DNA of 64,000 nucleotides from an uncultured Vampirovibrio sp. Its GTDB lineage: Bacteria; Cyanobacteriota; Vampirovibrionia; Gastranaerophilales; Gastranaerophilaceae. Below the pieces are notes generated by a model, which saw nothing but the letters and a program-made list of their open reading frames with translations, had not been told where the DNA came from and did no database searches. Position numbers and translations under genes: made by a program. The DNA is taken from positions 30,010 through 94,009 of the forward strand of contig CAJTWU010000003.1 of assembly GCA_910579975.1 (NCBI GenBank). The letters are read 5' to 3'. Positions 2,976 to 49,387 of the stretch are shown here, one piece after another; position 1 is the first letter of the stretch; each line of letters opens with the position of its first letter.

Positions 2976-3262
2976 CTTATACCTCTCTTATTTAACTTAA
3001 AGACAATATTAACTAAGCCCTTGCGAAGTTTTGCAAGTTCTTTCAACTCAATTAAGCATGCTCTTTTTGTAACATTTTGATTTACTGCTTATTTTGTTTT
3101 GAACTATCTTATTTAATTTCGTCTTACTCTTATATAAAGTTTATATAAAACCTCAAATTTCAGAGAACACTTTCTTTGTTACAAAACTTAACACAGTATT
3201 TGAGCAGTACATTCTTTTATATCACCCTGAAATACTGTTATATCAACACCATTCAGAACAAT

Positions 3263-3279
3263 TGTAACAAATTGTAAAT
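3263..3279 (+). promoter_or_regulatory. upstream direct-repeat module TGTAACA-AAT-TGTAAAT, 16 nt before the sigma-28 -35
   Basis: 7+3+7 module with 10-bp period. The same module at the same 16-nt offset occurs at 23079-23095(-), 44779-44795(-) and 11667-11683(+). Confidence 0.5.
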
Positions 3280-3295
3280 CTTAATCCAAATTCAT

Positions 3296-3322
3296 TAAAG
3301 TTTTTAGAAAATGTGCCGATAT
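3296..3322 (+). promoter_or_regulatory. sigma-28 (FliA/SigD)-type promoter TAAAGTTT-N11-GCCGATAT
   Basis: -35 at 3296-3303 and -10 at 3315-3322, with an exact 11-nt spacer. About 28 nt upstream of ATG 3351, which has an AAGAGGTG RBS. Confidence 0.75.
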
Positions 3323-10176: not shown

Positions 10177-11202
10177 ATGGAAAAAGATATTGATTGGTCT
10201 AATTTAGGATTTGGTTATTTAAAAACTGATTACCGTTATGTTTCAAACTTTAAAGACGGTAAGTGGGATGATGGAGTTTTATCAACGGATGAAACTGTAA
10301 CACTTCATGAAAGTGCCGGAGTTTTACAATACGCTCAAACTTGTTTTGAAGGTATGAAAGCATATAGAACAGCAGATGGAAAAGTTGTTTGTTTTCGTCC
10401 TGATATGAATGCAAAAAGAATGGCAGATACTTGCCGTCGTCTTGAAATGCCGGTTTTTGATGAAGATAGATTTGTTGAAGCTGTAATTAAAGTTATAAAA
10501 GCTAATATAAACGCCGTTCCTCCTTATGGAAGCGGAGCTACATTATATTTAAGACCTTATATGTTTGCTTCAAACGCAGTTATTGGTGTAAAACCGGCAA
10601 CTGAATACCAATTCAGAATTTTTGCAACTCCTGTTGGACCTTATTTCAAAGGAGGAGTAAAACCAATTACACTAAGAGTTCCTGATTTTGACCGAGCAGC
10701 TCCCCGCGGTACTGGTCACGTTAAAGCCGGCTTAAATTACGCAATGAGTCTTCACGCTATAGTAGATGCACATAATCAAGGATTCAATGAAAACATGTAC
10801 CTTGACTCCGAAACAAGAACAAAAGTTGAAGAAACAGGCGGTGCTAATATAATTTTTGTTACAAAAGAAAACACTGTAGTGACTCCAAAATCAAGCACAA
10901 TTTTGCCTTCAATTACTCGTCGTTCTTTAATGTATGTTGCAGAACATTATTTAGGACTAAAAGCAGAAGAACGCGAAGTATATATGTCTGAAGTTAAAGA
11001 CTTTAAAGAATGTGCTTTATGCGGCACAGCAGCAGTACTTTCTCCTGTTGGAAAAATCGTTGACCATGGAAAAGAAATTGCACTGCCTTCAGGAATGAAC
11101 GATATGGGTGAAATTACCAAAAAGCTTTATGATACTTTAACCGGTATTCAAATGGGAAGAATTGAAGCTCCTGAAGGATGGATAAAGGTAATCAATGAGT
11201 AA
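10177..11202 (+). CDS. ilvE: branched-chain amino acid aminotransferase (class IV)
   Basis: Class IV aminotransferase layout. ATG 10177 follows GGAGGG. The track ORF starts at GTG 10165. Confidence 0.9.
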   Translation: MEKDIDWSNLGFGYLKTDYRYVSNFKDGKWDDGVLSTDETVTLHESAGVLQYAQTCFEGMKAYRTADGKVVCFRPDMNAKRMADTCRRLEMPVFDEDRFVEAVIKVIKANINAVPPYGSGATLYLRPYMFASNAVIGVKPATEYQFRIFATPVGPYFKGGVKPITLRVPDFDRAAPRGTGHVKAGLNYAMSLHAIVDAHNQGFNENMYLDSETRTKVEETGGANIIFVTKENTVVTPKSSTILPSITRRSLMYVAEHYLGLKAEEREVYMSEVKDFKECALCGTAAVLSPVGKIVDHGKEIALPSGMNDMGEITKKLYDTLTGIQMGRIEAPEGWIKVINE

Positions 11203-11671
11203 ATGCAAAAGCTTTGCACCTGCAATTAATGAAAATTCTAAGATATTAATCCTTGGCTCAATGCCGGGGATTAAATCTTTAGAAGAAACACACTACTACG
11301 CTCATCCTCAAAACAGATTTTGGAAAGTTATGAGCGTTTTATGCAATACTGATATGGTTTCAATGGATTATCAAACCCGCATTCAGACACTTCTTGATAA
11401 TAACTTTGCACTCTGGGATGTTATAAAATCATGCAAACGAGAGGGAAGTCTTGATTCTGCTATCGAAAATGAAAAACCAAATAATATAAAAGCTCTTTTA
11501 AAAAAATACCCTAATATTGAAACTATATACCTTAACGGTAATAAAGCTTATTCTGCATTCAAAAAACATTTTCCCGACTATTTACCTCTTTGTAGAAAAA
11601 TGCCTTCTACAAGCCCCGCAAATGCACGTTTCCAGTTGGAAAGCCTTTTAAAAGAATGGAACATTTTGTAA
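11195..11671 (+). CDS. DNA-deoxyinosine (hypoxanthine) glycosylase, UDG superfamily
   Basis: ILILGSMPG...HPQNRFW...LWDV motifs of the small UDG-family glycosylases. 158 aa. Confidence 0.7.
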   Translation: MSKCKSFAPAINENSKILILGSMPGIKSLEETHYYAHPQNRFWKVMSVLCNTDMVSMDYQTRIQTLLDNNFALWDVIKSCKREGSLDSAIENEKPNNIKALLKKYPNIETIYLNGNKAYSAFKKHFPDYLPLCRKMPSTSPANARFQLESLLKEWNIL

Positions 11672-22999: not shown

Positions 23000-23035
23000 A
23001 TTCCCGTACTCCTTTTTTTACTTATCTGTTAATCT

Positions 23036-23062
23036 ATACGGCATTTTTAGACAAAACTTTAG
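23036..23062 (-). promoter_or_regulatory. sigma-28-like promoter TAAAGTTT-N11-GCCGTATA
   Basis: On the minus strand, -35 at 23055-23062 and -10 at 23036-23043. About 36 nt upstream of ATG 22999. Confidence 0.6.
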
Positions 23063-23078
23063 AATTTGAAATAAAATT

Positions 23079-23095
23079 GTTACATTATTTTACAT
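23079..23095 (-). promoter_or_regulatory. upstream direct-repeat module TGTAAAA-TAA-TGTAACA, 16 nt before the -35
   Basis: Same 7+3+7 module and the same 16-nt offset as at 3263-3279 and 44779-44795. Confidence 0.5.
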
Positions 23096-42905: not shown

Positions 42906-44039
42906 ATGAAACTTAATTTTTCTAAGCCAAAAATTATAAATACAATTCAAGATTTCAACAAAGGCGGCAATCGTATTATTATGAGAAAACCCGCTGGTTT
43001 TTCATCATCAGAAGCACCTTTTGGAACAAAAAGAGCAGAAGTGCTTTTGATTGAACACAATTTTGGAAACAACAAAACAAATGTTAACCTATACTATGAC
43101 TCGAATAACAGATTAATCGGACAAAAACGTGAAAATTATCAAGGAAATACTCTTATAGACTATATAGAATCTCGTTATACTGTGAGAAAAAAGTCTAATT
43201 GGGATAAATACATAATTTCTTTAAGCGATGTTCAATCAATAACTTATAATCCAGATAAAACAATTAAATCAGCAGAAAGACACAAAGTTGATATAGTTCA
43301 AGAAAATGGAATTAAAAATCCTTATATAAATATAATGAAATATAATGCCTCAAGAACCCCTGAGAACAATTTTACCGAACAATTTTCAATAACAAATGAA
43401 TATAATTCAATACGCACCAAATCCACCCGCAGCGAAAACGGAGACTTGCTTGAAATTATAACAAAGGCAAGTGAAAACATTCCAAAAGAAGTAGCTAACG
43501 ATGAATATATGGTTTTACGCGGAATGCCTGATGAAATTGCAATCAAATCATTATTTAGATTATTCGGGAAAAAAGAAAGATTAGAAAACCTTGATGACAT
43601 AAGACTTTTTTACATAAAGGGAGATAACATTAATTATGCACAAGGAGTCGCTCTTGATAATAAAATTGGAATAGGAACTTTACCCACCCTGGGTGAAAAC
43701 ATTAACACAACATCGCATGAATTAAGGCATTTCAGACAGCGAGAACTCAAAAACAAACTCAAAACCCAGCTTAGGAATAAATTTTTTAACAAAAAAGAAT
43801 TTAATCCAAGAGAATTTAAGCTTGCGCTTCATTTTCTCAAATGCAAGCTGCAGAAATGTCCATTTCCTGTTACAAGAATTACAAGACGCTGGTATATGGC
43901 CTCCGGTCTGGAAAAAGATGCATTTCGTATTGGAGAACGCTTTGAAACAGATTTTCAACGTAGAACAAAAAAATTAAAAGAATTTTTCCCAATGGTAACA
44001 AGGCATAATATGGGATTAGAGCCTACGTTGCCCAATTAA
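42906..44039 (+). CDS. hypothetical protein with HExxH motif (putative metallopeptidase-like)
   Basis: SHELRH is present in the C-terminal third. The start is uncertain: ATG 42906 lacks a clear RBS, and the track starts at 42822. The 3' end overlaps ung convergently by 17 nt. Confidence 0.5.
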   Translation: MKLNFSKPKIINTIQDFNKGGNRIIMRKPAGFSSSEAPFGTKRAEVLLIEHNFGNNKTNVNLYYDSNNRLIGQKRENYQGNTLIDYIESRYTVRKKSNWDKYIISLSDVQSITYNPDKTIKSAERHKVDIVQENGIKNPYINIMKYNASRTPENNFTEQFSITNEYNSIRTKSTRSENGDLLEIITKASENIPKEVANDEYMVLRGMPDEIAIKSLFRLFGKKERLENLDDIRLFYIKGDNINYAQGVALDNKIGIGTLPTLGENINTTSHELRHFRQRELKNKLKTQLRNKFFNKKEFNPREFKLALHFLKCKLQKCPFPVTRITRRWYMASGLEKDAFRIGERFETDFQRRTKKLKEFFPMVTRHNMGLEPTLPN

Positions 44040-44679
44040 TAGCTTTTTCTTTTAAAATCTCATTGCACCTTACAAAATGGTCACATTCCATAAATCCGCG
44101 ATGCGCCGACAAAGGAGAAGGATGAGTTGTATCCATTACAGTTATACTATCTATGCCCTCAAAGCAAGCACCGACTTTTTGTGCATAAGAACCCCAGCGC
44201 ATTACAATTAAGTTCCCGCGTTTTGCAAGAATAGAAAAAATATTCTCAACAACCGGCGCCCATAATTTTGTATGCTCTTTCAATAGTTTTGTGTCTTTAC
44301 CCTCAAAAGTTAGAGCAGTGTTGAGCAAAAGCACGCCCTGTTTTTCCCAGTCAAGCAAAAGATTTGTAGAATGTTTGCAATCAGGAAAATCATTCTCTAG
44401 TTTTTTAAAGATATTTTTTAAAGATGCCGGCGTTTTTTTAGAAAGACTTGAAAACGCCAATCCATGAGCGTGTTCAGCACTTGGATATGGATCTTGCCCA
44501 ATTATTAAAACTTTAACATTATCTAAAGATGTCAACTTAATCGCGTTCAAGACATTTTCTTGAGATGGTAATATTTCACGGTCTTTACGTTTTTCTTCTA
44601 TAACCGCCATAATATCTTTGATTAAATCAATATCTAAACCAGCCTCAATCCAGCTATTATCAATTCCAAATTTTTCCAT
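44023..44679 (-). CDS. ung: uracil-DNA glycosylase (family 1)
   Basis: GQDPYP, HGLAFS and HPSPLSA motifs. Confidence 0.95.
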   Translation of the reverse strand: MEKFGIDNSWIEAGLDIDLIKDIMAVIEEKRKDREILPSQENVLNAIKLTSLDNVKVLIIGQDPYPSAEHAHGLAFSSLSKKTPASLKNIFKKLENDFPDCKHSTNLLLDWEKQGVLLLNTALTFEGKDTKLLKEHTKLWAPVVENIFSILAKRGNLIVMRWGSYAQKVGACFEGIDSITVMDTTHPSPLSAHRGFMECDHFVRCNEILKEKAINWAT

Positions 44680-44701
44680 AAATTTATTTAATCACAAAAA
44701 A

Positions 44702-44730
44702 GCAACATAATATACATTGTGTTGCTTTTT
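44702..44730. repeat. left 29-bp inverted repeat (IRL) of candidate invertible element
   Basis: GCAACATAATATACATTGTGTTGCTTTTT is the exact reverse complement of 44914-44942. Confidence 0.97.
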
Positions 44731-44734
44731 ATTG

Positions 44735-44762
44735 TATACGGTTAGAATGGAGCAAAACTTTA
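44735..44762 (-). promoter_or_regulatory. sigma-28-like promoter TAAAGTTT-N12-ACCGTATA inside the invertible core, currently facing ung
   Basis: On the minus strand, -35 at 44755-44762 and -10 at 44735-44742. The -10 matches GCCGTATA of the 23036 promoter at 7 of 8 positions, with a spacer 1 nt longer. Confidence 0.5.
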
Positions 44763-44778
44763 GGATTAAAACAAAAAA

Positions 44779-44795
44779 TGTTACATTTATTTACA
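44779..44795 (-). promoter_or_regulatory. upstream direct-repeat module TGTAAAT-AAA-TGTAACA, 16 nt before the -35
   Basis: Same module and same offset as at 23079-23095 and 3263-3279. Confidence 0.5.
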
Positions 44796-44913
44796 AAATA
44801 CACATTTACTCTATTTCAACCAATTTGAACCAATGAGTAATCTGTTCAAAAGGCGGATTTGTAGATGTACTAAAAACTAGTAGTATTAAGAAATATCCGC
44901 CGTCCCTTGTTGA

Positions 44914-44942
44914 AAAAAGCAACACAATGTATATTATGTTGC
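44914..44942. repeat. right 29-bp inverted repeat (IRR) of candidate invertible element
   Basis: AAAAAGCAACACAATGTATATTATGTTGC matches the reverse complement of IRL at 29/29 positions. Confidence 0.97.
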
Positions 44943-44963
44943 GAAATAGAAAGGAATATTATT

Positions 44964-45233
44964 ATGATTAGAAACATTAATTCACAATTTAATTATCCGC
45001 AAACATCTTTAAACAAGAAGATGCCAACCCAAGCAAAAACACAAGTAAATAATGTCGGAAATGAACCCATTCGTGATAACGAAGCAGATGCAAGTTTCGG
45101 TCGCTACATTGATAAACACACTAAATTATCAGGCGGCCTAGAAAGAATACAACTAAATCCTAACTGTGAAGGACAATGCGCAGGTATAGTCATCGTAGCC
45201 TTTTTTGACTGGGCATTTCATGGATTTGATTAA
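44964..45233 (+). CDS. hypothetical small protein (89 aa) with hydrophobic C-terminus
   Basis: ATG 44964 after AAAGGAA. The track starts at TTG 44907, inside IRR. N-terminus MIRNINSQFNYP. C-terminus CAGIVIVAFFDWAF. Confidence 0.6.
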   Translation: MIRNINSQFNYPQTSLNKKMPTQAKTQVNNVGNEPIRDNEADASFGRYIDKHTKLSGGLERIQLNPNCEGQCAGIVIVAFFDWAFHGFD

Positions 45234-45275
45234 AAAACATACAAAAATTAACAAGTCAAATTAAAGGAGATTACT

Positions 45276-45605
45276 ATGTTATCAAATGAAGATTTTAAAC
45301 TATATCAGGAAATATTTGCAAATCATACAAAACAACAGAATAACAATCCTGAAATCGAAAATTATATAAAGAAACAACTTGAATTTTTCTTATATTCTGA
45401 ATTAAAAAAATACATTCAAGAAATCAATTACTCATGCTCTATTGAGCTTAGTGAAGGAACAACAGCCAAAGTTTCAACAGCAAATGGAATAATTAATATT
45501 GTAGTAAAGAAACAAAACGGCGAAGTTTTCAATGGAGTTTGGAGCAATTTACCATATAATAAAATTCTTGAAATGGCACCAATGATAGTTAACAATCAAA
45601 AATAG
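45276..45605 (+). CDS. hypothetical small protein (109 aa)
   Basis: AAAGGAGA RBS. Second gene of the cassette and followed by a strong terminator. Confidence 0.6.
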   Translation: MLSNEDFKLYQEIFANHTKQQNNNPEIENYIKKQLEFFLYSELKKYIQEINYSCSIELSEGTTAKVSTANGIINIVVKKQNGEVFNGVWSNLPYNKILEMAPMIVNNQK

Positions 45606-45633
45606 CTCTTATAAGAGAGCTAAGCCCCCTAAC

Positions 45634-45681
45634 AAAACTTTCGGCATTACCTGTAGAATAAACGGTAATGCCGAAAGTTTT
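45634..45681. terminator. long hairpin terminator between convergent genes
   Basis: 18-bp stem AAAACTTTCGGCATTACC/GGTAATGCCGAAAGTTTT. Confidence 0.75.
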
Positions 45682-45698
45682 GACTAAAAGCTAAAAAA

Positions 45699-48748: not shown

Positions 48749-49387
48749 ATGAAAGACATTGAGACAATAAACAAGGAGAGGGAAGGTCGGATTAATCTTT
48801 CCCGATATAAAGATTTAATCGAAACTATATCCAAAGTTGAGTACAAAAAGTTCTCAAACCTTGGCTTGATTGACCTTTCTGAAGTTATAAATCTTGCTAC
48901 ATATACAGTCTATTACCTTGTTAACAACACCAAAAATGAAGAAGTTTATAATGAAGCATATATAGTTAAAGCTATTAAATGGGCAATAAGAAATGAAATG
49001 CGCCGTCGTTATAAATGGTACACAATGAAAAACAGTGACAATGTCGACCAAGAAAAAGTGAAAGATGCTGTTTATAAAACAATTCTTTCTATTGACGAAA
49101 TGGCTGATGCCGAAAACCCTACATTAATCAAAGATAATGACAGAACTCCGGAGGAAAAAGCAGAGCTTCTTGAATTAAAAAACCGAATTAAAGAAGTTAT
49201 GAAAAAACTCCCTCAACGAGAACAGGATTTGATTGAAGCTAAATATTTTTATGATAAAAAACTCAAAGAAATAGCAGAAGAATTTAATATTTCACAATCA
49301 AGAATATCAAGAATTATACAAAACGGCTTAGAAAAAATTAAAAAAGAACTATTGAAACAGGAAGATTTGAATGAAAACAATATTTGA
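48749..49387 (+). CDS. group-3 sigma-70-family sigma factor (FliA/SigD/WhiG-like)
   Basis: Region 2 is [20 protein letters not shown] (compare FliA ...LDELRSRDW). Region 4 HTH is [30 protein letters not shown]. 212 aa with no region 1. Confidence 0.75.

Follow-up and report, generated by a model that had tools for sequence, protein, structure and literature searches.

Can the short stretch of DNA that separates ung (uracil-DNA glycosylase) from a divergent two-gene cassette be turned around, and with it the promoter it is predicted to carry? The question is raised by a 64-kb region of an uncultured Vampirovibrio sp. (assembly GCA_910579975.1, contig CAJTWU010000003.1, positions 30,010 to 94,009 of the forward strand; 64,000 nt, hereafter the window), in which perfect 29-bp inverted repeats enclose a 183-bp core between these two loci. 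The order to which this organism belongs, the Gastranaerophilales, consists of non-photosynthetic relatives of the cyanobacteria that are known almost only from metagenome-assembled genomes, and we know of no report on how they vary their surfaces. A first-pass annotation, made from the sequence letters without database searches, had proposed an invertible promoter. Our analysis supports this proposal: we consider the locus likely to be a phase-variable promoter inversion switch (inverton) in a Gastranaerophilales chromosome, given that both orientations of the core occur in the lineage, that its repeats belong to a family of recombination sites associated with recombinases, that its promoter is of a recurrent class, and that a distant homologue of the cassette has a switch of its own. 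It looks like the first sighting, apparently, of a sizeable undescribed switch family.

Perfect inverted repeats enclose a gene-less core with a predicted promoter

The left repeat (GCAACATAATATACATTGTGTTGCTTTTT, 44702-44730) is the exact reverse complement of the right repeat (44914-44942) at 29 of 29 positions, with a spacing of 183 nt, as the first-pass annotation had described. It had also called the match far beyond chance in 64 kb; none is expected by chance, and the 24-mer that forms the hairpin part occurs only twice in the window, even with 3 mismatches allowed, and in none of 100 shuffles. Each arm is itself a quasi-palindrome (GCAACAtAAT-ATAC-ATTgTGTTGC) with 15-nt half-arms that match at 93%, and the two arms are also 87% identical when compared as direct repeats. 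The inverted orientation of the pair is set by four asymmetric positions, and these uphold the earlier view of a true inverted pair rather than one palindrome seen twice. The elements of the switch are as follows.

44702..44730: IRL (left inverted repeat), the left recombination site; the 24-bp quasi-palindrome GCAACATAA-TATACA-TTGTGTTGC ("form A", 44702-44725) plus TTTTT
44731..44913: invertible core, 183 bp, with no open reading frame (ORF) and no Rfam match
44735..44762, minus strand: predicted sigma-28-type promoter core; TAAAGTTT (44762-44755), a 12-nt spacer and ACCGTATA (44742-44735)
44779..44795, minus strand: upstream element TGTAAAT-AAA-TGTAACA; its TGTAACA (44785-44779) lies 16 nt upstream of the -35 box
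44914..44942: IRR (right inverted repeat), the right recombination site; AAAAA plus GCAACACAA-TGTATA-TTATGTTGC ("form B"), the exact reverse complement of IRL

In the assembled orientation the predicted promoter, TGTAACA-N16-TAAAGTTT-N12-ACCGTATA on the minus strand, reads towards IRL and ung, and its -10 box ends 4 nt from the 29-bp repeat and 9 nt from the hairpin. We detected no ORF, tRNA or Rfam family in the core, where Rfam returned nothing at E≤1, and no Rfam family at gathering thresholds in the whole window; a small-RNA gene lying between two terminators was rejected for want of any Rfam match in the core.

In RNA folding the arms form hairpins of -11 to -16 kcal/mol with A- and T-runs. 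TTTTTT follows IRL on the minus strand and GAAATAG follows IRR on the plus strand, the T-run and GAAA to which the first-pass annotation had drawn attention. The minus-strand stem of IRL is mismatched and has only 3 G-C pairs before its U6, reaching -13 kcal/mol when the A/U extension is included, and a terminator scan flagged only IRR, on the minus strand, as terminator-like. The earlier interpretation took IRL for a likely terminator; we prefer to view both arms as complete recombination sites resembling dif, with any terminator role secondary to recombination.

The core occurs in both orientations

Using exact-protein look-ups of ung and of a cassette protein, we retrieved copies of the locus from independent assemblies and found four states: no block (neither site nor cassette), a site without core, the state of the window, and a flipped core. 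The window state, in which site A, core and site B follow one another and the promoter points towards ung, is present in the window, L001, L003, L045, L047, L048, L055-L057 and L063, and its left junction also in L059-L062, for 14 native assemblies in all. The flipped state in the same lineage is represented by L058 (Logan SRR36117788). Its ung flank is 99.46% identical to the window over 2208 nt and is followed by the left site and the reversed core; the last 256 nt match a window flipped in silico at 255 of 256 positions. L058 carries ung allele P0127, as do nine native contigs, so that flipped and native cores are found in the same genomic context, albeit in different samples.

The assembly of Logan contigs uses 31-mers that occur two or more times (PMC12424806). 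The 29-bp repeat is shorter than the 30-nt graph overlap, and by our reasoning the flipped junctions therefore could not be made by mis-joining in the graph. Contig ends are informative as well. L002 starts at 44913 and L049 at 44914, just where the right arm has its inner edge. Native molecules contain the 29-mer (R) only as A-R-G and T-R-T, and flipped molecules add A-R-T and T-R-G; by derivation, a k=31 graph holding both would therefore branch exactly at 44913/44914, whereas a mixture with an empty-site allele would branch about 24 nt further right. The two breaks are those expected of a k=31 graph if both orientations coexist in the sample. An inverton would likewise give a cause for the frequent contig breaks in Gastranaerophilales assemblies.

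A separate regularity concerns the P0127 allele: contigs with this allele that enter the core, L058 and L059-L062 included, all stop at the same 30-mer (core 36-65; window 44766-44795). This holds for no fewer than 11 contigs, which come from different samples and reach the 30-mer from both sides and in both orientations. Such stops imply that the graph of this lineage branches at a second point within the core, and no repeat in the window explains them.

Sister lineages show that the core can also be gained or lost. L041, the GTDB representative of a sister species (flanks 81-88% identical to the window, same gene order), and L046 carry the cassette and one form-A site without the core. L050 (Logan SRR35890630) has a complete flipped core, 98% identical, in a sister-lineage background whose flanks are 100% identical to those of the empty L046 (168/168 and 758/758). 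A 212-bp module, consisting of the core and one site, has thus come or gone between otherwise identical backgrounds, and L050 together with L046 resembles the integration or excision product of a 212-bp circle. We tried to derive the A...A arrangement of L050 from the A...B arrangement of the window by a single inversion, deletion or integration with central crossover, in each case without success. The lineage of the window and the sister lineage of L050 also differ at one base of the arm that adjoins the right flank.

The repeats belong to a family of dif-like recombination sites

Each arm of the repeat consists of two inverted arms of ~9 bp (GCAACAYAA / TTRTGTTGC) around an asymmetric 6-bp centre (TATACA / TGTATA), which gives the site consensus CAACAYAA-TGTATA-TTRTGTTG. 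The dif site of Escherichia coli, GGTGCGCATAA-TGTATA-TTATGTTAAAT (PMC3025954), has the layout of two arms and a central region (PMC3025954, PMC6449649). Our site agrees with dif positions 7-24 at 17 of 18 bases, including the whole centre TGTATA and the inner XerD arm (for IRL, on the minus strand), and some of its relatives agree at all 18. Inverted arms, a ~6-bp centre and a dif-like sequence are the marks of an Xer/dif-type site, and the arms show all three. We rejected the chromosomal dif, and with it the terminus, as an identity for the locus: related lineages lack the locus, and there is no turn of GC skew at the site. The two sites here, and several per genome in relatives, are also unlike the single dif of a terminus. 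The site is dif-like in sequence and is not the chromosomal dif.

A pattern scan with CAACAYAATRTAYATTRTGTTG covering one genome for each of 185,579 species, for which ~0.5 chance matches are estimated under uniform base composition, recovered 38 loci. They derive mostly from assemblies of Gastranaerophilales or Melainabacteria, and otherwise from Clostridia (Roseburia, Agathobacter, Mediterraneibacter, Lachnospiraceae); many of the sites lie at contig ends in short-read assemblies. Nearly every site is paired, at a distance of 97-261 bp, with a second site of opposite central orientation (few mismatches allowed), and the pairs comprise 18 inverted, 1 direct (L028) and 1 ambiguous. Bases just outside the 22-mer are common to all sites within one genome. 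The defined 22-bp site offers a search key for phase-variable loci in Gastranaerophilales genomes. A scan of JGI metagenomes contributed one informative locus, L006, and two loci (L004, L005) have a single site in an unrelated context with weak recombinase similarity nearby.

Cores of the family carry promoter sequences that face outward beside one site. Some are extended -10 promoters (TGCTATAAT in L006 and L035; TGTTATAAT in L014), and the switches of Clostridia have promoters of the TTGACA type. The genes next to the switches include divergent prepilins (L006), a prepilin and a YadA-like protein (L035), divergent GT8 glycosyltransferases (L024, L009), and genes of 1,400 to more than 2,000 codons (L026, L028, L029, L037).

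Two variations on the paired arrangement were seen. The right end of the switch in L029 (2970-3015) and L037 (2880-2925) consists of two tandem site copies, 24 nt apart. In L028 (990-1267) and L050 (146-384), direct site pairs surround a promoter-bearing core, an arrangement that should excise rather than invert.

Xer-like recombinases, mostly small, accompany some of the sites

An Xer-like tyrosine recombinase is encoded beside or between the sites at seven loci, at a distance of ~20-85 nt from the sites where it does not lie between them; it has 180-196 aa in five cases and ~280 aa in two. In L009, part of a HiFi genome (OZ006972.1), a 187-aa ORF ends 16 nt from the left site and matches Pfam Phage_integrase at 2e-26. 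This enzyme comprises a catalytic domain only, and the R in GLRISD, the H-x-x-R in HTLRKTF and the Y in LRYIG are visible in its translation. Its homologue in L036 is 83% identical and equally near a site, homologues with 34-40% identity (tblastn) lie between the two sites in L027, L039 and L043, and full-length recombinases with a SAM-like N-domain stand beside the site pairs in L012 and L020. OZ006972.1 has another switch, L024, in whose vicinity no recombinase is encoded, which suggests that the enzyme acts in trans.

The best-scoring models for the family are XerA, XerD, XerC and XerS, all below their curated cut-offs; FimB/FimE-type "tyrosine-type DNA invertase" models score more weakly (1.5e-13, 1.6e-08), and the best PDB matches are an XerC-like protein, XerA and XerH. 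More than 7,700 relatives were found at E≤1e-10. Three abundant members (P0099, P0073, P0016) precede gaps of 260-430 nt ahead of glycosyltransferase clusters, and these gaps hold sites with the same arms (TTCAACA...TGTTGAA) and other centres. At the P0073 locus, a segment flanked by two such sites runs one way in L077 and the other way in L080, and L078 is rearranged; contigs L085 and L086 stop inside the gap. The Xer-like family found near the sites thus supplies candidate recombinases.

None of these is encoded in the window. A tblastn search of its 64 kb with a recombinase of the cognate family gave nothing at E≤10, and no recombinase family turned up when both cassette genes, a neighbouring ORF of 377 aa and 20 ORFs that could not be named by eye were scanned against Pfam; the remaining ORFs read by eye, from their translations, as housekeeping genes. 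This agrees with the earlier statement that neither core nor window encodes a recombinase.

Some loci of the family go beyond a two-site switch. At the P0099 locus the downstream genes come as two alternative clusters, and the point at which these part coincides with a site. The multi-site regions of the P0073 (L077-L082, 2540-2990) and P0099 (L067-L076, 3040-3345) loci point to shufflon-like or cassette-exchange behaviour. In Agathobacter and Roseburia, the sites enclose the recombinase gene itself within 0.75-1.3 kb (L027, 646-1938; L039, 3756-4786; L043, 5486-6260). These elements adjoin flagellin genes, with csrA and flagellin (Pfam) at L043, and their Hin-like layout with a tyrosine recombinase suggests flagellin phase variation in Lachnospiraceae that are abundant in the human gut. 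The hosts, Roseburia and Agathobacter, are abundant human gut bacteria, and their flagellins are immunologically relevant.

The predicted core promoter resembles promoters of the window and of other switches

The consensus for sigma-28 promoters in enteric bacteria is TAAAGTTT-N11-GCCGATAA. Besides the core, the window holds three further copies of TAAAGTTT-N11/12-CCGWWWW, against 0 expected, each ahead of a correctly oriented gene.

3296-3322, plus strand: sigma-28-type promoter, TAAAGTTT-N11-GCCGATAT, before an orphan gene
23035-23061, minus strand: sigma-28-type promoter, TAAAGTTT-N11-GCCGTATA, before a 714-aa orphan gene
30399-30425, plus strand: sigma-28-type promoter, TAAAGTTT-N11-GCCGATAA, before an orphan gene

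All three share the form TAAAGTTT-N11-GCCG(A/T)ATA. The first-pass annotation had likened the core promoter to that of the 714-aa gene; the architecture is indeed shared, and a 43-nt blastn match at 81% links the core to that promoter region (23035-23094); the core spacer is 1 nt longer. The upstream motif (T)TGTAAC(A/G) recurs 16-19 nt upstream of TAAAGTTT at 23035-23094 and ~3250-3322 in the window and in L026, L029, L037 and L087. The position next to a recombination site recurs as well, with -35/-10 elements abutting a site in L013, L026, L029, L037, L042 and L087: GCCGAT(A/T)T-GTA runs directly into the CAACA of the site in L026, L029, L037 and L042, TACCGATATAAA does so in L013, and GCCGTAAA stands 19 nt away from the site in L087. 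To judge from these motifs, the core holds a putative promoter of a class that recurs at other places in the window and in further switches.

The regulon suggested by the three other window promoters looks like a set of possibly secreted, Asn/Gln-rich orphan proteins. Directly upstream of the -35 box at 30399, a GTATA/TATAG pentanucleotide is repeated in tandem in about five copies (~30350-30385, plus strand), a possible site of slipped-strand variation. A 212-aa sigma-70-family protein is encoded 3.8 kb from the switch (48749-49387, plus strand); its best subfamily matches are FliA/WhiG and SigB/F/G, all under curated cut-offs, and it is a candidate reader of the TAAAGTTT...CCGATA promoters.

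A similar switch accompanies a distant homologue of the cassette

44964..45233, plus strand: 89-aa orphan gene, first of the cassette (gene call), with ribosome-binding site (RBS) AAAGGAA and the C-terminal motif CAGIVIVAFFDWAFHGFD
45276..45605, plus strand: 109-aa orphan gene, second of the cassette (gene call)

Neither cassette protein belongs to a Pfam or NCBIfam family. Word-based homology searches with the two proteins reached the same species group only, where the 89-aa protein has its single close relative. A full HMMER search with the 109-aa protein, whose AlphaFold model has a pLDDT of 47, found six weak relatives among 1.84 billion representatives; five of these have 107-118 aa, and the best (P0158) is 40% identical.

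P0158 is encoded in L087, within an operon of 199-aa, 108-aa and 186-aa genes. The C-terminal 49 aa of our 89-aa protein are 51% identical to the C-terminus of the 199-aa protein, the product of the first gene of this operon (blastp 1e-15; ...CAG[IV]VIVAFFDW.FHGF). Upstream of the operon lies an inverted site pair with the same arms and another centre, CAACATAA-TACTTA-TTATGTTG, which encloses a 368-bp core with TGTAACA-N16-TAAAGTTT-N11-GCCGTAAA facing the operon. L089 is organised in the same way, and the site is where contig L088 begins. That a switch has been kept with this cassette across such deep divergence argues for function.

Alternative explanations

Several observations weigh against an inversion switch. 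Nearly all assemblies are in one orientation, and the evidence for both orientations comes from assemblies of different samples and two contig breaks, not from one clonal population. L058 ends within the core, so the right junction of the flipped state is unseen in the lineage of the window, and L050, the sole full-length flipped copy, has its sites as direct repeats (A...A), is not a simple flip of the window, and fits integration of a module as well as inversion. The spacer of the core promoter is 1 nt longer than in the three other window promoters. No recombinase was located for this genome: the window was searched, and look-ups of three abundant family members (P0099, P0073, P0016) landed in other species with different centres. 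One alternative is a mobile promoter module, a 212-bp unit comparable to a dif module or IMEX that enters an existing single site either way round and can be excised, such that the two orientations would be independent insertions with no flipping in place. In its favour, L041 and L046 possess one site but lack the core; the direct form-A sites around the core of L050, in flanks 100% identical to those of L046, are the product expected of circle integration; L028 likewise has a direct pair; and the core is 98% identical between lineages with ung flanks ~81-92% identical. The A...B sites of the window lineage, however, cannot be the outcome of one integration and would permit inversion but not excision, L058 differs from native contigs with the same ung allele by orientation only, 18 of the 20 family pairs are inverted, and the core is found at no other locus in the DNA fetched. 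We therefore think it unlikely that mobility is the whole account, and regard it as real and additional to switching, the two not being exclusive. A miniature inverted-repeat transposable element (MITE) was rejected, since the core occurs only at the ung locus in all DNA fetched, other site pairs hold unrelated cores, and the empty sites of L041 and L046 keep one complete repeat copy without a target-site duplication.

Two further accounts concern the sites rather than the core. The hairpins might be two bidirectional intrinsic terminators that flank an ordinary intergenic promoter, with no part in recombination. Their folding energies (-11 to -16 kcal/mol with A- and T-runs), the terminator-like scan of IRR on the minus strand and similar hairpins with A7/T7 flanks in Clostridia (L010, L015) would fit. 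But this is contradicted by L058 and L050, the core being found both inverted and absent in near-identical backgrounds, and terminators are not conserved in sequence in the manner of this site, which keeps its 22 bp, asymmetric centre included, across two phyla, nearly always has an oppositely oriented partner and is associated with genes of tyrosine recombinases. We hold this explanation to be extremely improbable, though some attenuation of transcription by the hairpins may occur as a by-product. Alternatively, the sites could be served by the XerC/XerD machinery that resolves chromosome dimers in the host, not by a dedicated small recombinase, as proposed for the pdif modules of Acinetobacter. 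This is favoured by the match of 17/18 to the central dif positions, by the reversible inversions of inverted pdif pairs that XerC/XerD recombine (PMC9947245), and by the lack of a dedicated recombinase in the window. Against it stand the dedicated Xer-like recombinases by or between sites in seven independent loci and the distinction of the locus from the chromosomal dif (absence from related lineages, no GC-skew turn); moreover, the arms of the site are nearly identical, which suggests that they are bound by one protein species rather than by an XerC/XerD heterodimer. We judge host XerC/XerD very unlikely to be responsible.

Proposed mechanism

In the mechanism we propose, a tyrosine recombinase encoded elsewhere in the genome, most likely of the ~180-aa, catalytic-domain-only, Xer-like family, would synapse the inverted sites, exchange strands within their identical centres and flip the core. 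As the arms are perfect inverted repeats, the sites would be regenerated unchanged. Whichever way the core lies, the transcript is predicted to begin within the adjacent site or close beside it. With the core as in the window, the RNA would form the IRL hairpin (-13 kcal/mol) and encounter U6 22 nt before the ung ATG. In the flipped state the same 5' end would be followed by GAAAUAG; the predicted hairpin is of -6.9 kcal/mol with no U-run, and thus no terminator, so that the transcript would reach first the 89-aa gene, whose RBS and ATG are located ~54 nt from the -10 box, and then the 109-aa gene. The first-pass annotation had put this distance at about 55 nt and had read the assembled state as OFF and the flipped state as ON. 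That logic is plausible for the cassette, but the assembled state is not established as OFF: its promoter points at ung and may serve it.

The setting of ung bears on this point. In lineages without the block, ung directly follows the gene for a glycoside hydrolase of family 57 (GH57); in the window, 1 kb of antisense genes and hairpins separates the two. With ung cut off from its former upstream operon, the assembled orientation may supply it with a promoter, by way of an attenuating hairpin. Such supply could explain why this state dominates among the assemblies.

Relation to known systems

The fimS switch of Escherichia coli is a 314-bp promoter segment between inverted repeats that is flipped by the ~200-aa tyrosine recombinases FimB and FimE. 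Our locus resembles it as a short segment with a predicted promoter between inverted repeats, which a small tyrosine recombinase would flip and whose orientation would set expression, and the recombinase family described here scores on FimB/FimE-type models. The fimS repeats, however, measure 9 bp, have half-sites at their flanks and do not resemble dif; the genes of FimB and FimE adjoin their switch, whereas no recombinase lies within 64 kb here; the recombinase family here matches Xer proteins best, and the predicted promoter is of the sigma-28 type. In the multi-locus invertons of gut Bacteroides, a master recombinase reportedly acts in trans on many promoters that share one repeat consensus. 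Promoter invertons with a shared consensus, a recombinase in trans (probable for the family here), a gut symbiont as host and surface structures as targets (here pilins, glycosyltransferases and giant surface proteins across the family) are common to both systems, whereas they differ in phylum, in repeat sequence and in the type of promoter. Mpi, the master invertase of Bacteroides, belongs to the serine recombinases, unlike the tyrosine Xer-like family here. The layout that the first-pass annotation had compared with fimS and Bacteroides invertons is accordingly shared in architecture and logic, with sites and enzymes closest to Xer/dif.

The Hin system of Salmonella depends on a serine recombinase that needs an enhancer and Fis, and on quasi-palindromic hix sites that bind a recombinase dimer. 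Our locus, with its predicted promoter, resembles the H segment, an invertible segment with a promoter for a sigma-28-class gene and with quasi-palindromic sites, and the clostridial relatives L027, L039 and L043 carry, like Hin, the recombinase inside the segment, beside flagellin genes. Hin differs in being a serine recombinase, and the core in the window has no recombinase gene. Surface-antigen switches of Mycoplasma and Ureaplasma are said to be inverted by Xer-family tyrosine recombinases at short inverted repeats; we liken them to our locus by description, not by sequence, and they differ in repeats, lineage and their full-length recombinases.

The gain and loss of the 212-bp unit recalls the dif modules of Acinetobacter. 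A pdif module is bounded by inverted dif-like sites, is present or absent according to context and adds one site (PMC6449649, PMC9947245). Reversible inversions between opposite pdif sites with identical centres have been shown experimentally (PMC9947245), and the origin of the inverted arrangement is unsettled (PMC6449649). The locus behaves in the same way, with A...B in the window, no module in L046 and L041, and the other orientation in L050. In contrast to our chromosomal, gene-less module of 183 bp with near-identical arms and an associated dedicated mini-recombinase, pdif modules are plasmid-borne, hold whole genes (resistance, toxin-antitoxin) and are acted on by host XerC/XerD at asymmetric C and D arms. 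The element works like a dif module without being a member of the Acinetobacter type; its dif-like site and the presence or absence of its module connect promoter inversion with Xer-type module mobility. Our literature search found no paper that links promoter inversion with Melainabacteria or Gastranaerophilales, and none that contains this site sequence.

We tentatively raise a wider possibility, on balance rather doubtful, that mini-Xer proteins (~180 aa) and dif-like sites together form an undescribed cross-phylum system of portable promoter cassettes that flips promoters, inserts and excises modules and exchanges gene clusters. If true, it would cover phase variation of pilins, glycosyltransferases, giant surface proteins and flagellins, the insertion and excision of modules at single "landing" sites (L046 versus L050), and the exchange of downstream clusters (P0099 and P0073 loci). 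It would then be a chromosomal counterpart of the Acinetobacter dif modules that acts on regulatory DNA, in uncultured Melainabacteria and in Lachnospiraceae.

Genomic setting of the switch

The organism, a Candidatus Gastranaerophilales (Melainabacteria) bacterium, has a G+C content of 33.6%. The genes on either side of the switch are as the first-pass annotation had described, with ung on the minus strand (a Pfam match to UDG) and the 89-aa and 109-aa genes on the plus strand (gene calls).

44023..44679, minus strand: ung (uracil-DNA glycosylase), Pfam UDG, faced by the promoter in the assembled orientation
45603..45682: two hairpins that close the cassette against the convergent GH57 gene; 45603-45622, followed by a minus-strand T-run, and a 19-bp perfect stem at 45633-45682
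44680..45698: accessory block of 1019 bp, with site(s), core, both cassette genes and hairpins

One source names the protein cluster of ung as uracil-DNA glycosylase of Candidatus Gastranaerophilales. L053, L054 and L064-L066 have no trace of the block, neither site nor cassette; in L053 and L054, 2 nt separate the end of the GH57 gene call from the ung ATG, and in L064-L066 the calls for these genes abut. These contigs carry ung alleles P0125 and P0126, and their flanks are ~80-85% identical to the window. Because related lineages lack it, we regard the 1019-bp block (44680-45698) as accessory. Its right-hand boundary shows no repeat and no second site.

Between the cassette and the GH57 gene, the perfect 19-bp inverted repeat at 45633-45682 has a 12-nt loop; Rfam gave only chance hairpin matches at 45601-45694 (microRNA models for this repeat). 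A second gene of the UDG superfamily is encoded elsewhere in the window (11195-11671, plus strand; Pfam UDG, 5.6e-13), and ung is thus not the sole uracil-DNA glycosylase-like gene nearby.

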